From the IMG/VR virus record IMGVR_UViG_3300025840_000013: 64,000 nt of DNA. The stretch is one strand, 5' to 3'. Numbering within the stretch: the first letter of the stretch is position 1; every line of letters starts with the position of its first letter. The position numbers and the translations under genes are program-made. This DNA is from a virus. The notes under the pieces are model-generated. The model worked only from the letters and a program-made list of their open reading frames with translations. It did not search any database and was not told the origin of the DNA. Positions 4,923-14,005 of the stretch are shown here, piece by piece.

Positions 4923-5351
4923 ATGGCATATGTTTCCCAAGAAATGAAAAAATCACTCGCTCCTGCGATCAAATCTGTACTTAAGAAGTACGGATTCAAG
5001 GGAACGATTGGTGTTCACAATCATTCTTCTTTGGTAGTAAACATTAAGAGTGGTGTTCTTGATCTAATTGGTATCGCCAATGCAAAAAACAAAGAGATAT
5101 CAGAACGCAGGAACATGCCCTACTACGCCAACGAAGGTTACTTCCAAGCAAATCCCTACCACCCAGATCAGTACGGCGAAGCTTCTCAATTCTTTGAGGA
5201 GTTGGTTGCCGCTATGAAAGGTGCTTTCTCTAAAGATGGCCCTAAGTGGTATGACAATAGTGATGCGATGATTGATTATTTCGATACTGCGTATTACTTG
5301 GACATCAATGTAGGTAAGTGGGACAAACCTTACGAATTCACAGGAGTGTAA
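4923..5351 (+). CDS. phage hypothetical protein
   Basis: GAGG SD; ends in DNSDAMIDYFDTAYYLDINVGKWDKPY. Confidence 0.8.
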   Translation: MAYVSQEMKKSLAPAIKSVLKKYGFKGTIGVHNHSSLVVNIKSGVLDLIGIANAKNKEISERRNMPYYANEGYFQANPYHPDQYGEASQFFEELVAAMKGAFSKDGPKWYDNSDAMIDYFDTAYYLDINVGKWDKPYEFTGV

Positions 5352-7182: not shown

Positions 7183-7211
7183 TTGACAATATGTTTCATA
7201 TATGGTACATT
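7183..7211 (+). promoter_or_regulatory. sigma70 promoter for the tRNA cluster
   Basis: TTGACA-17-TACATT just upstream of tRNA-Arg. Confidence 0.7.
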
Positions 7212-7330: not shown

Positions 7331-7445
7331 TCGGGCGAGTCGGACGCTCGATTTTGTCGAGTGAGTAAAAACACGGTTAAGCCTGAAAACGACACTAAAT
7401 AGAAGACTCAGGTGGGAAGTTGGAAATCCCTCACAAGAAACCAAC
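7331..7445 (+). ncRNA. candidate structured RNA with pseudoknots, downstream of tRNA-Arg
   Basis: Stems TCGGGCG/CGCTCGA, TGTCG/CGACA crossing CCTGA/TCAGG, and H-type GGGA/TCCC + GTTGG/CCAAC. Confidence 0.5.
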
Positions 7446-7461
7446 ATGATTAAACAGGGGC

Positions 7462-7548
7462 GGACAGTAGGAAGAGGCGACTAATGTATAAGAAAATAAA
7501 GCGGCCTGCAACCCCTCAAACTGCTAAGGTTACGAACACCTACTGTCC
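7462..7548 (+). ncRNA. candidate structured RNA closed by a 10-bp stem
   Basis: GGACAGTAGG/CCTACTGTCC enclosing 67 nt, followed by a T-run. Confidence 0.45.
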
Positions 7549-7569
7549 TTTTTATTCGGAGTTACTATA

Positions 7570-7773
7570 ATGCAAGTATCACCAGTATCGCCAGTAAGAA
7601 TTGTGAGTGAGTATGTTAGACAACTGAATGTCGGTGATAAAATTCATAACATTGTAGTAACACATAAAGATTTTGGAGGCTCTGTTAGAGTTGAAGAAGT
7701 TTATAGAACATACGATAAAACTGGAAAGATAAGAACAGTCGAACCAGTTAGTAAAGTTGATGTTGAAGTTTAG
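7570..7773 (+). CDS. hypothetical protein within the tRNA cluster
   Basis: GGAG SD; TAG stop abuts the 5' end of tRNA-Gly. Confidence 0.65.
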   Translation: MQVSPVSPVRIVSEYVRQLNVGDKIHNIVVTHKDFGGSVRVEEVYRTYDKTGKIRTVEPVSKVDVEV

Positions 7774-7847
7774 GCGGATGTCGTATAATGGTATTACCTT
7801 AGCCTTCCAAGCTAATGACAGGGGTTCGATTCCCCTCATCCGCTCCA
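7774..7847 (+). tRNA. tRNA-Gly(TCC)
   Basis: GCGGATG/CATCCGC acceptor, TTAGC-CTTCCAA-GCTAA, CCA. Confidence 0.97.
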
Positions 7848-7855
7848 AAAATAAA

Positions 7856-8026
7856 AATCCAAGGTGACGGCCTGTGGATTGTGGTGACTGAATAATCCCT
7901 TGCAAATGGGGATAAGGTAATGTCGAAGGAACTTAGCGGTTCGTCTTAGCGGATGCAGACAGGTATGAGTCAAGTTAGACAGGAAGTTTGCCAGTGACTC
8001 GTTGCAGGATCCTAACCCTGCCCACA
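7856..8026 (+). ncRNA. candidate multi-stem ncRNA with twin CTTAGCGG hairpins (possibly manA-like)
   Basis: At least seven helices, duplicated loop, GCAAAT/GTTTGC pseudoknot; family assignment not verified. Confidence 0.6.
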
Positions 8027-8038
8027 CTAATAAATTTC

Positions 8039-8118
8039 TAAGTACACATGAGAGTAGATGCACCTACTTTCCTGTGCATAGGACAAGGGTTTGAAAGACT
8101 GCAAGTCATGTGTATTTA
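8039..8118 (+). ncRNA. candidate kissing-loop RNA
   Basis: 13-bp closing stem; two hairpins whose loops ATGCAC and GTGCAT are exact reverse complements. Confidence 0.55.
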
Positions 8119-8127
8119 AAAATTTAT

Positions 8128-8204
8128 CGGGGTATAGCGCAGTCTGGTAGCGCATCTGCTTTGGGAGCAGAGGGTCGTTGGTTCGAATCCAGCTACCCCG
8201 ACCA
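8128..8204 (+). tRNA. tRNA-Pro(TGG)
   Basis: CGGGGTA/TACCCCG acceptor, TCTGC-TTTGGGA-GCAGA, CCA. Confidence 0.97.
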
Positions 8205-8216
8205 ATTTAGGAATAT

Positions 8217-8292
8217 TCCCAGATAGCTCAGTTGGTAGAGCAAATGACTGTTAATCATTGGGTCGGGGGTTCGAGCCCCTCTCTGGGAGCCA
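8217..8292 (+). tRNA. tRNA-Asn(GTT)
   Basis: TCCCAGA/TCTGGGA acceptor, AATGA-CTGTTAA-TCATT, CCA. Confidence 0.97.
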
Positions 8293-8312
8293 AATAAAGA
8301 GTAGGATACTAG

Positions 8313-8855
8313 TTGAGTAATTTTAGATTTATTGAAAAGAACCTAGATGTAAGTAAGATACTACAACAAGTTCTTGATAATCCAAAAGATTGGAATTATG
8401 TTAATAACTTAAAGACAGATGGAAAAGATGTCGGCGGTGATGTAGACCCATATGGATTCTTGCCTCTAGTTATGGCAGTTGTAAAGCCAGGAGAAAGTCC
8501 AAAGAATACAGAAAAAACTCAGAAGACTGAGCTTTATGATAAATATGATGAAGTTTCGAAGTGGTTAAGAAGTCAAGGAATAACACAATTATCAAGAGCT
8601 GCATTTTTTAAGTTGGGTGTTGATGAGTGGGTTGGTAAACATATAGATGAAGGATCTTACTATTTAACTAGAGATAGGTATCATCTTTCTCTACAAGGTA
8701 GTTATGATTATGAAGTTGATGGAGAATGGCATACTATTGAGCCGGGCACTTTCTTCTGGTTTGATAATAAAAAATACCATCAGGCGCATAATGTAGGTGA
8801 TGTTGAAAGAATAACTTTTGTATTTGATGTTCCAAAGTCAGAAAACAATCCATAG
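8313..8855 (+). CDS. aspartyl/asparaginyl beta-hydroxylase-like 2OG-Fe(II) oxygenase
   Basis: HID...RYHL...FWFDNKKYHQAHN...RITFVFD double-stranded beta-helix motifs; TTG start with AGGA SD. Confidence 0.8.
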   Translation: MSNFRFIEKNLDVSKILQQVLDNPKDWNYVNNLKTDGKDVGGDVDPYGFLPLVMAVVKPGESPKNTEKTQKTELYDKYDEVSKWLRSQGITQLSRAAFFKLGVDEWVGKHIDEGSYYLTRDRYHLSLQGSYDYEVDGEWHTIEPGTFFWFDNKKYHQAHNVGDVERITFVFDVPKSENNP

Positions 8856-9347: not shown

Positions 9348-9545
9348 ATGTCACTTGGATTTAGAGACAAATACCAAAACATAATTAAGAATTTAGTTCA
9401 GAATGCCGACCAGTGCAGTCAACAGTGGGTTCTTACTGGAGAACCAGAATGGCATGCTGCATATATGATGTATGTTGGAAAGGTTTGTGAATTAAAGGAC
9501 TGGATTAAAGAAAGAGAAAGTGAAATAGAGAATACGCCGCTGTAG
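9348..9545 (+). CDS. hypothetical protein whose stop codon lies inside tRNA-Thr
   Basis: AGGA SD; last codons overlap tRNA-Thr at 9536-9545. Confidence 0.65.
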   Translation: MSLGFRDKYQNIIKNLVQNADQCSQQWVLTGEPEWHAAYMMYVGKVCELKDWIKERESEIENTPL

Positions 9546-9611
9546 CTCAGCTGGTAGAGCAACTGATTTGTAATCAGTAGGTCGGGAGTTCGAATCTCTC
9601 TAGCGGCACCA
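9536..9611 (+). tRNA. tRNA-Thr(TGT)
   Basis: GCCGCTG/TAGCGGC acceptor, ACTGA-TTTGTAA-TCAGT, CCA. Confidence 0.96.
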
Positions 9612-10929: not shown

Positions 10930-11513
10930 TAGAAGGATTTAAGCCACCTTGTGTGGTATTCAGAACTAGGGTCAGAGATGAATCAATCGAAGGCCCAAAC
11001 CCATATCGTTGGGAAGATGTAACAAGTGATGATCTGTTCAAAGGTAAGAGGGTAGTTTTATTCAGTTTGCCTGGCGCATTTACACCTACTTGTTCTACAT
11101 ATCAATTGCCTGGCTTTGAAAGTAATTATTCAAAGATTAAAGAATATGGTATTGACGAAGTATACTGCATTTCGGTTAACGATGCATTTGTTATGAATGC
11201 ATGGGCCAAGGCACAAGATATTCAAAATGTAAAAGTTATTCCAGATGGTTCTGGAAACTTTACTCGATTTATGGGAATGTTAATTGGCAAAAACCATTTA
11301 GGGTTTGGTATGCGTAGTTGGAGATATATGTGTGTTATTAATGACGGTGTTATTGAACATTGGTGGCAAGAGCCAGGCATTAATAACGATGGAAGTGATG
11401 ATGATCCATATGTACAAACAACTCCAGAAAATATGTTGAGTTATCTAGATCAAAAAAATATGTGGAATGAAGTTAAAAAACGAACCAGTATCGGCGATTA
11501 CACGGTTGTATAA
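10926..11513 (+). CDS. peroxiredoxin (Prx5/Redoxin family)
   Basis: LPGAFTPTCS active-site motif, SVNDAFVMNAW, RSWRY. Confidence 0.93.
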   Translation: MIEGFKPPCVVFRTRVRDESIEGPNPYRWEDVTSDDLFKGKRVVLFSLPGAFTPTCSTYQLPGFESNYSKIKEYGIDEVYCISVNDAFVMNAWAKAQDIQNVKVIPDGSGNFTRFMGMLIGKNHLGFGMRSWRYMCVINDGVIEHWWQEPGINNDGSDDDPYVQTTPENMLSYLDQKNMWNEVKKRTSIGDYTVV

Positions 11514-12310
11514 TGTATGATATAAGACCCCTTCACAAGAATAATGCTTCTGTATTTGTTGCAGAACGCCATTATTCTGCAGTTATGCCTCGACTAACTA
11601 AACATTATCTAGGATTTCACTTAGATGATAAGTTAGTTGGGGTTTTAACTTTAGGATGGGGAACCAATCCGATGGGAACAATTAAAAAAATGTTTCCAGA
11701 TTTGACAACTTCTGATTACTTTGAAATTGGAAAGATGTGCATGGATGATTCTATGCCTAGAAACTCCGAATCCCAAATGTTGTCCCAAACAGTAAAGTGG
11801 ATGCGTGAAAATACAAATGCAAAATATCTGTACACTTGGGCAGATGGAATAGTTGGAAAGCCAGGATATGTTTACCAGTCTGCAAACTTTCTTTATGGTG
11901 GTTTTATATGGTCTGATGTATATGTCTCTGAAACAGGCGAGAAGGTACATTTTAGGACTATACAGAGGAAGATGAAGAAAGAGATGGGTAGACATGATAC
12001 GAAGTATGGCCCTCGACCAAATGACGCCAAAATGGGTGATATGGGGTTTTCAAGAGTTTGGGGTAAACAGTTCAGATATATCTATCCATTGACTAAGACA
12101 GATAGAAAATATATGAATAGAAATTCTACATGTTGTTGGACAAATCAATATCCAAAGGATGAAGATTTGCAATGGAAAATTAAAAGGCCCGGCGAAACAG
12201 AATACGAATGGTGTGATGATATGCCGTTCATTCATAGTAATGATATAAAACATAATAAGAGTAATATTGCAAGATATAAGGCAGATATTACGATTGATAG
12301 TTTTTTTTAA
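11513..12310 (+). CDS. Mom-like adenine-modifying GNAT enzyme
   Basis: RHYS, EIGKMCMDDSMPRNSESQMLS, TWADG...GYVYQSANFLYGG resemble Mu Mom family motifs. Confidence 0.75.
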   Translation: MYDIRPLHKNNASVFVAERHYSAVMPRLTKHYLGFHLDDKLVGVLTLGWGTNPMGTIKKMFPDLTTSDYFEIGKMCMDDSMPRNSESQMLSQTVKWMRENTNAKYLYTWADGIVGKPGYVYQSANFLYGGFIWSDVYVSETGEKVHFRTIQRKMKKEMGRHDTKYGPRPNDAKMGDMGFSRVWGKQFRYIYPLTKTDRKYMNRNSTCCWTNQYPKDEDLQWKIKRPGETEYEWCDDMPFIHSNDIKHNKSNIARYKADITIDSFF

Positions 12311-13467: not shown

Positions 13468-13661
13468 AAATAAGTTGGGGTTACTTTATAAGTATCCCCA
13501 TGTCTTCTTACTTTATCCTTCTATTCCTCTTGGGTTTATTTGGAAAAAGTTTAATGATATTTACACCAGAAAAAAATATAGTAATGTATGAGTTTTTTGG
13601 TGTTGTATTAATACATTATATTTTTTATATTATTTTTTGCTTGACAAAAAGAAAAGAATAG
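13464..13661 (+). CDS. small two-TM protein with basic C-terminus (holin candidate)
   Basis: ATGA overlap with the endolysin; two hydrophobic helices, ends TKRKE. Confidence 0.4.
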   Translation: MKISWGYFISIPMSSYFILLFLLGLFGKSLMIFTPEKNIVMYEFFGVVLIHYIFYIIFCLTKRKE

Positions 13662-13671
13662 TGTATAAATA
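13641..13671 (+). promoter_or_regulatory. composite sigma70 / T4 late promoter for the tmRNA
   Basis: cTTGACA-17-TATAAA where the -10 box is part of TATAAATA. Confidence 0.75.
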
Positions 13672-13674
13672 CAG

Positions 13675-13980
13675 TTGTAATTGTTGATACGATTCAACAT
13701 ACATACTGGACTTGGGGGCAGTACCCAACGCCTCCACCATAAGCACATCCGTAAGGCGCAGTAAGGTTCCCAACGGATTACCGTAGAAGACTACGCAGGG
13801 TGTGTTTATGATGGGGGCGAACTAGGATCGACAGGTGTGTAGAGATGAGAGTAGATTACCGTGTTGACCTACGATATTCGGTCGAACAAAACTAAACGCA
13901 AACGATAACTTTGCACCTGAGTTTGCTCTAGCAGCATGATCAGCGGGGTATGGGTTCCACCTTGTTACCAAACGGGCCCG
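13675..13980 (+). ncRNA. ssrA: circularly permuted two-piece tmRNA, alphaproteobacterial type
   Basis: Acceptor piece ends GGAC-TTGGG-GGCAGTA-CCCAA-CGCCTCC-ACCA (13739); coding piece starts GGGGGCG (13813) with a G3.U pair; tag ORF 13898-13939 ANDNFAPEFALAA*; outer ends approximate. Confidence 0.93.
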
Positions 13981-14005
13981 CAGTCATAGTAAAAGGATTT
14001 AATAA

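Follow-up and report, generated by a model that had tools for sequence, protein, structure and literature searches.

A divergent manA-family RNA with twin UUAGCG hairpins in the tRNA array of a marine T4-like phage

Results

The element lies among the tRNA genes of a T4-like myophage

The DNA analysed here, referred to as the window, is a 64,000-nucleotide stretch of the IMG/VR virus record IMGVR_UViG_3300025840_000013. It is part of a marine T4-like myophage and encodes gp32, a gp5-type baseplate hub, gp6 and gp7-like wedge proteins and a tail sheath-like protein. The gp6 of the window is at most 38% identical to the gp6 of Methylophilales phage Melnitz, Pelagibacter phage HTVC008M and Synechococcus myophages. 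ARAGORN and Rfam identified five tRNA genes, all on the + strand, between 7247 and 9611, and the element that is the subject of this report stands between the genes for tRNA-Gly and tRNA-Pro (Table 1). A weak terminator-like hairpin (7336-7350, +) is located just 3' of tRNA-Arg in a non-coding stretch (7331-7445), and a small ORF (7570-7773) lies downstream of that stretch. From 7351 to 8518 of the + strand, consensus matching revealed no terminator-like site. Two reverse-strand ORFs that overlap the element, 7836-8063 and 7579-7905, were rejected as spurious, as they have no Pfam match and are crossed by compensatory base changes.

The gap between the element and tRNA-Pro is filled by a second folded RNA, which is a neighbour and not a part of the element. 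The segment 8032-8127 folds with an energy of −26.7 kcal/mol (z −3.38; none of 200 shuffles was as good), and the distance of 102 nt from the closing stem of the element to tRNA-Pro is kept in eight relatives. The folded RNA matched no Rfam family, the best score (TEG147, 18.8 bits) being noise. Two further observations concern the surrounding genes. A 65-aa ORF (9348-9545, +) ends 10 nt inside the tRNA-Thr gene (9536-9611), so that its stop codon is within the tRNA, and an ORF at 11513-12310 (+) matches a Mom-like DNA modification protein family (phrog_1384, E 5.7e-39).

Table 1. Positions of the element, its helices and its neighbours in the window
Feature	Position	Strand	Remarks
Promoter-like site	7183-7211		Precedes tRNA-Arg; consensus match only
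tRNA-Gly (UCC)	7774-7847	+	ARAGORN; Rfam tRNA 67.7 bits; encoded CCA; upstream neighbour, 3' end 8 nt before P1
manA-family RNA, twin-UUAGCG sub-group	7856-8026	+	First base of P1 to end of closing stem
P1 hairpin	7856-7880	+	6 bp + 4 bp, one bulged G; AATCCA 7856-7861 / TGGATT 7875-7880; inner AGGT/GCCT
Closing stem	7881-7884 / 8022-8025	+	GTGG / CCAC
Conserved core strand	7885-7895	+	TGACTGAATAA; flanks P3 together with TAAGGT 7913-7918
P3 hairpin	7896-7912	+	TCCCT 7896-7900 / GGGGA 7908-7912; loop L3 TGCAAAT 7901-7907
P4 stem	7921-7961	+	TGTC 7921-7924 / GACA 7958-7961; encloses both twin hairpins
First twin hairpin	7929-7942	+	GAAC / loop TTAGCG 7933-7938 / GTTC
Second twin hairpin	7943-7954	+	GTC / loop TTAGCG 7946-7951 / GAT; abuts first hairpin, no spacer
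P8 long hairpin	7965-8002	+	8 bp; ATGAGTCA 7965-7972 / TGACTCGT 7995-8002; interior holds GTTTGC 7986-7991
P9 hairpin	8004-8021	+	GCAGG 8004-8008 / loop ATCCTAAC / CCTGC 8017-8021; abuts 3' strand of closing stem
Separate folded RNA	8039-8118	+	About 80 nt, long closing stem; between manA-family RNA and tRNA-Pro
tRNA-Pro (UGG)	8128-8204	+	ARAGORN and Rfam; downstream neighbour of manA-family RNA
tRNA-Asn	8217-8292	+	Next after tRNA-Pro

The preliminary description of this DNA, made from the letters alone, had listed an AATCCA/TGGATT helix, a GTGG/CCAC closing stem, a TGTC/GACA junction and the twin hairpins, and these, like all the other helices in its list, are present in the sequence at the positions given in Table 1. 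The word CTTAGCGG begins at 7932 and again at 7945, so that both twin hairpins display the same loop. In the core around P3, A7887-C7888 pair with G7917-T7918. The P9 loop has 8 nt in the window (ATCCTAAC) and 7-11 nt in the relatives described below.

Compensatory changes establish the fold

Homologues were collected by scanning IMG/VR for the pattern CTTAGCGG-N5-CTTAGCGG, which gave 66 loci, namely 53 clear homologues and 13 chance matches. Because this first set was baited on the twin loops, the invariance of the loops within it is by construction, and two scans anchored on the core served as an independent check. The minimum free energy fold recovers most of the helices, with a z-score of −1.94 and 7 of 200 shuffles folding as well; an energy that is barely better than that of shuffles does not by itself establish the structure, for which covariation is the main evidence. 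In a MAFFT-based alignment of 11 close and mid-distance homologues, to which a hand-drawn structure including an L3-L8 pairing was applied, 89.8% of the cells were paired as compared with 74.4% in shuffles and 38-52% when the partners were slid, and double-sided changes were seen at 29 of the 51 pairs.

A covariance model (R1) built from the alignment of these 11 homologues found one copy in the window (7855-8031) and one in each of the 53 loci. In the R1 alignment of the 54 matches (37 distinct), 93.7% of the cells were paired as compared with 68.0% in shuffles, and compensatory changes were found at 37 of 45 pairs; this alignment is fitted to the model, which favours the structure, and the MAFFT-based count agrees with it. 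All helices other than P8 were 90-100% paired among the 37 distinct homologues. Compensatory changes occurred at all ten pairs of P1 and, with 100% pairing in each case, at 4 of 4 pairs of the closing stem, 5 of 5 of P3, 3 of 4 of P4 and 3 of 5 of P9. Both twin hairpins were 100% paired as well: the third pair of the first is UA in 22 sequences, AU in 12 and CG in 3, and the second varies between GU, GC and AU and between UA and CG. In P8, each of the 8 pairs showed compensatory changes, yet pairing reached only 76% of the cells, since conservation does not extend to the inner two pairs. These results demonstrate that the fold of 7856-8026 is real and conserved.

The element belongs to the manA family

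A permissive cmscan search of 501 nt with the Rfam model for manA (RF01745) gave a full-length match at 7859-8031 (model positions 1-192) with 44.4 bits and an E value of 2.9e-10. This score is below the Rfam gathering score of 55.2, and the element is missed at gathering thresholds. The alignment covers P1 with its GACG loop (7866-7869), which aligns with GAcg of the Rfam consensus, as well as the closing stem, UGACUGAAUAA, UAAGGU, P3, P4, P8 and P9. The shortfall in score arises because the usual three junction hairpins are replaced by two UUAGCG hairpins, which the model skips as local ends. The core strands around P3, UGACUGAAUAA (7885-7895) and UAAGGU (7913-7918), match the manA core exactly; the pattern GTGACTGAATAA...TAAGGT, where the Rfam consensus is most strongly conserved, has a single occurrence in the window and none in 100 shuffles.

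The other twin-loop elements scored 35.7-67.8 bits with RF01745. Six of them are above the cut-off (60.3-67.8 bits; loci L002, L004, L055, L005, L042 and L033), and R1 recovers these at 68-85 bits. Since twin-loop relatives pass 55.2 bits and are also found by R1, the link to accepted manA members is continuous. The Rfam cut-off nonetheless leaves a sizeable branch of manA undetected: scanning with nothing but the twin-loop pattern led to the 53 viral loci, and 7 of the 13 elements checked fall below it. A relative whose P8 and P9 sequences are the same, and which has a tRNA downstream, is already present in the raw alignment of 2010 from which the Rfam seed was drawn. Judged from these sequence comparisons, the element is a divergent, below-threshold member of the known manA family, in a little-described sub-group with twin loops. 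The preliminary description had raised manA as a possible identity and had proposed a cmscan search that included manA, together with covariation analysis, as the check; the search bore the identity out with a match to this known motif, below its cut-off, and the stems are kept in homologues with compensatory changes.

Cultured phages yielded no close relative. When 7848-8127 was compared by blastn with 50,697 phage records, T4-type genomes included, the single match was a chance one to a Rhizobium phage, and no manA match was found in phages Melnitz and Bellamy. Pelagibacter phage HTVC008M has a weak manA-like match (locus L303, 1495-1688; KC465899.1, approximately 5031-5224) with 25.9 bits for RF01745 and 20.8 bits for R1. 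It lies directly upstream of the gp32 gene and overlaps a 56-aa hypothetical CDS (AGE60342.1), which may be spurious.

Complementarity of L3 and L8 covaries

The hexamer GCAAAT in L3 (7902-7907) is complementary to GTTTGC in the interior of P8 (7986-7991), and it had been suggested from the window alone that the two can pair. The homologues bear this out, as the complementarity itself covaries: L3 and L8 are complementary over at least 6 bp in 11 of the 13 distinct L3 types, as compared with 29 of 156 cross pairings. Nine or more distinct word pairs occur, among them GCAAAU/GUUUGC, CAGUAU/GUACUG, CAGGC/GCUUG, GAACGU/GCGUUC and GUUCGU/GCGAAC, and further ACAAAGC/GUUUUGU, AGUCAA/UUGACU, AGCUAU/AUAGCU and AGCUAC/GUAGUU. 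The covariation would fit an intramolecular pseudoknot or an intermolecular kissing contact, between which it cannot tell.

Three other candidate contacts were considered, of which the first two were rejected and the third is treated as speculative. GTTAG (7974-7978, in L8) and CTAAC (8012-8016, in L9) are complementary in the window; however, among 36 distinct sequences the L8-L9 pairings within an RNA (mean 4.3 bp) are about as long as cross pairings (4.0 bp), and the contact is therefore not claimed. Pairing of the twin loops with the P9 loop (UUAG/CUAA) is possible in part of the sub-branch to which the window belongs and is absent where the P9 loop is UAAAAGGCAAU. Pairing of the twin loops with each other, either as UUAG/UUAG through two wobbles or as a GC/GC core with flanking G-A, is short, chance-prone and too weak to claim. 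No segment of the RNA is consistently Watson-Crick complementary to the twin loops.

The twin loops are one form of a variable junction

In the classic manA elements (about 70 of cyanophage type, collected by the core-anchored scans), the junction has three hairpins with the loops GUGGUG (L5), GNRA or similar (L6) and UUACCA (L7), and the outer loops, GUGGUG and UUACCA, are mutually complementary. The RNA of the window departs from this arrangement: instead of three hairpins, its P4 encloses two abutting hairpins with identical UUAGCG loops. The core-anchored scans also recovered twin UUAGCG loops on unrelated stems, among them GAUA/UAUC, GGC/GCC, UCC/GGA and GUCC/GGAC (loci L192, L259, L268 and L261). 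The presence of the same loop on such different stems argues that the loop sequence is selected independently of the stems. There is in addition a variant with a single UUAGCG loop (L127 and L148), and several further junction forms were seen in these scans. Taken together, the sequences indicate that the periphery of manA is modular, and that the twin-UUAGCG arrangement is one of several alternatives.

Some loop words appear at other positions. In two viral contigs (L253 and L294), both junction hairpins carry GUAAC-containing, GNRA-like loops, and a UUAGCGG or UAGCGGG word is found inside P8. In the twin-UUAGCG element L003 (3852-4031), the P9 loop is GUGGUAU and the interior of P8 contains ACCA, which are the words of the classic L5 and L7.

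One hypothesis for the conservation of the loops, which extends the suggestion in the preliminary description of a site for a dimeric protein, for example a decoy, is that the twin UUAGCG hairpins are sites for a dimeric phage or host protein, the RNA serving as a decoy, sponge or scaffold. Such a role would explain features that have just been described, in that at least eight stem sequences unrelated to one another carry the same loop, some of them in relatives collected without the loop bait, the two hairpins always abut without a spacer, and the loops lack a consistent Watson-Crick partner within the RNA. On the other hand, nothing in the analysed data points to a protein partner; other sub-groups have at this place GNRA-like (GUAAC) or complementary loops, which are typical elements of RNA-RNA contacts, and the loops at that position make RNA-RNA contacts in the solved manA assemblies. 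We regard protein binding as an unlikely purpose of the twin loops.

Twin-loop elements stand in tRNA arrays

With the window counted, a tRNA or tmRNA gene lies within 300 nt at 38 of the 54 twin-loop loci and within 30 nt at 30 of them, and the 63 tRNA genes that flank the elements all share the strand of their element. Typical gaps to the flanking tRNAs, 2-9 nt on the upstream side and 5-11 nt on the downstream side, are like those between tRNAs, and which tRNAs flank the element varies by lineage (Gly/Pro, Gly/Thr, Asn/Asp, Asn/Gly, Gln/Gly and Met). In contrast, among the classic three-hairpin manA elements of cyanophages a tRNA is within 300 nt at only 8 of the 72 loci with enough flank; the loci are interrelated and cannot be counted as independent events, but the difference is large nonetheless. 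At 16 of the 54 twin-loop loci the nearest 300 nt are free of tRNA genes (a few of these loci being cut by contig ends), so that the linkage is not obligatory. The statement in the preliminary description that manA RNAs are established as tRNA-adjacent went too far, given that the 2010 paper describes elements in 5' UTRs (PMC2864571) and that few of the classic loci are near a tRNA.

A tmRNA is also found near several twin-loop loci, upstream at L008 and L063 and downstream at L026. The window itself encodes a circularly permuted (two-piece) tmRNA at 13637-13982 (+; tmRNA_permuted 120.5 bits, alpha_tmRNA 112.9 bits) with the tag ANDNFAPEFALAA.

This context bears on whether the element is a cis-regulatory riboswitch or leader, which would respond to a ligand or a condition by controlling downstream genes. 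In Rfam and in the 2010 paper, manA is classed as cis-regulatory, a riboswitch candidate in 5' UTRs (PMC2864571), and an mRNA leader would agree with the ORF that is found 24-92 nt downstream at some twin-loop loci and with the position of the weak HTVC008M match just upstream of gp32. In the window, however, no ORF starts after the element, which is not in a 5' UTR; the next features are the second folded RNA and tRNA-Pro, and the 3' end of the element is free of any overlapping terminator or helix that would sequester a start codon. In the sub-group as a whole, 70% of the members are within tRNA arrays with spacers like those between tRNAs, and the ORFs downstream of the tRNA-less loci belong to no common family, as they comprise small unknown ORFs, one for a terminase-like protein and members of two unrelated PHROGs without known function. 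It had been argued from the window that a position before a tRNA, rather than before a CDS, speaks against a riboswitch; the 38 loci in same-strand tRNA arrays, and the unrelated genes downstream of the others, uphold that argument, and we consider a riboswitch or leader function improbable for this RNA.

Finally, the position in a tRNA slot and the 5-bp P9 hairpin that abuts the closing stem, which had been described as a T-arm-like, tRNA-like 3' end, might suggest a degenerate tRNA or a processing signal in which P9 and the closing stem imitate the T-arm/acceptor stack, but this can hardly be so, as 7856-8031 has no tRNA, tmRNA or tRNA-clan match at E up to 10 and none from ARAGORN, the P9 loop of 7-11 nt lacks the T-loop consensus, the same fold is also found outside tRNA arrays, and the conserved core is that of manA.

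Discussion

The twin-loop element occupies a slot in a tRNA array, its spacing from the adjacent genes is like that between tRNAs, and it has no gene to regulate, from which we infer that it is a gene for a free RNA co-transcribed with the tRNAs. We think it reasonably probable that the product is a free tRNA-array RNA of the manA family that is released by tRNA processing, probably associates with itself and is not a riboswitch. The element would most likely be transcribed together with the tRNAs. RNase P cleavage would then generate the 5' end of the following tRNA and 3'-end processing would complete the preceding one, so that the manA RNA would be released as a free, stable RNA of about 175-280 nt, which might act in trans. 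By analogy with the manA RNAs studied by cryo-EM, its exposed loops would probably join copies into closed oligomers via RNA-RNA contacts. The covarying L3/L8 pair is a candidate for such a contact and, less surely, so are the twin UUAGCG loops. As the twin loops are identical and not Watson-Crick complementary, the L5-L7 complementarity of every reported manA pentamer is absent here, and assembly of the twin-loop RNA may consequently differ or may not occur.

The family itself was already known, and what the gene context does is to sharpen a long-standing question about it. Described in 2010, manA is to this day an orphan "riboswitch candidate", and here is a sub-group that stands in the place of tRNA genes and is followed by no common gene. 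The place, the varied flanking tRNAs and the lack of a common gene argue that at least the twin-loop members are free RNAs and not mRNA leaders. A free RNA fits the 2026 report of manA cages (10.64898/2026.07.01.735769) and is paralleled by ROOL and GOLLD, which are found beside phage tRNA islands. The exchange between sub-groups of peripheral loop modules (GUGGUG/UUACCA, twin UUAGCG and twin GUAAC), at sites whose loops hold the solved assemblies together, also provides a natural series on loop identity versus oligomer geometry.

A bolder hypothesis, which we offer as speculation and think rather doubtful, is that twin-loop manA is a third tRNA-island-linked phage RNA after ROOL and GOLLD, which would be cut from a tRNA precursor and, during infection, would build closed particles made of RNA alone inside the cell. 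The UUAGCG loops would then be either like-with-like contacts between protomers or docking sites that face outward for a tRNA- or translation-related partner. If this is true, the recurrent tRNA linkage of cage-forming RNAs would point to a shared function in the supply or protection of tRNA during infection.

It is useful to compare the element with known systems. RNAC and RNAD of phage T4 (species 1 and 2 RNAs) have their genes in the T4 tRNA cluster and are matured with the tRNAs. The functions of these RNAs are still unknown (PMC9697503). They resemble the RNA of the window in being small RNAs, stable ones, of a T4-type phage; unlike it, they have simpler structures that are not manA-like, and blastn with 7848-8127 detected no sequence similarity to them.

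ROOL and GOLLD are phage RNAs that are "often near tRNA islands" and form nanocages (Kretsch et al. 2025, PMC12286853). Like the RNA described here, they are phage-encoded and elaborate, their function is unknown, and they often lie beside tRNA islands; their RNA-only closed cages have been seen, whereas those of the window RNA are predicted. They differ in being three to five times larger and in having unrelated secondary structures, and their Rfam models gave no match in the whole window at gathering thresholds, nor in 7700-8200 at E up to 10.

The manA motif was described in 2010 as a set of 5'-UTR elements, presumed cis-regulatory and a riboswitch candidate (Weinberg et al. 2010, PMC2864571). 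The RNA of the window shares with manA RF01745 the order of the helices and the core, the L3-L8 pairing that the consensus of 2010 marked as "pseudoknot?", and the occurrence in marine T4-like phages. It is unlike the described members in that it scores below the cut-off, has two UUAGCG hairpins in place of three and resides in a tRNA array instead of a 5' UTR, and in that its phage, with the divergent gp6 noted above, is not a cyanophage-like relative.

The closest comparison is with the manA RNAs studied by cryo-EM. Five of these form pentamer-based octamers, decamers or a 60-subunit shell, which are held together by the kissing loops L5-L7', L3-L8' and L8-L9' and by a GNRA-receptor contact; assembly was shown in vitro only, at high concentrations of RNA and Mg (preprint 10.64898/2026.07.01.735769). 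UUAGCG loops occur 0 times in the construct table of that study, and an L5-L7' Watson-Crick pairing is impossible in the RNA of the window. The family core is nevertheless the same, and the P1-P9, L5, L7, L8 and L9 numbering of the supplement maps onto the helices of the window. In the Photobacterium manA pentamers, the positions at which the window has L3 and L8 are those of the intermolecular L3-L8' kissing contact (10.64898/2026.07.01.735769). Given that the helix numbering maps across, the counterpart of the window's covarying L3-L8 pair is a contact between protomers in those pentamers.
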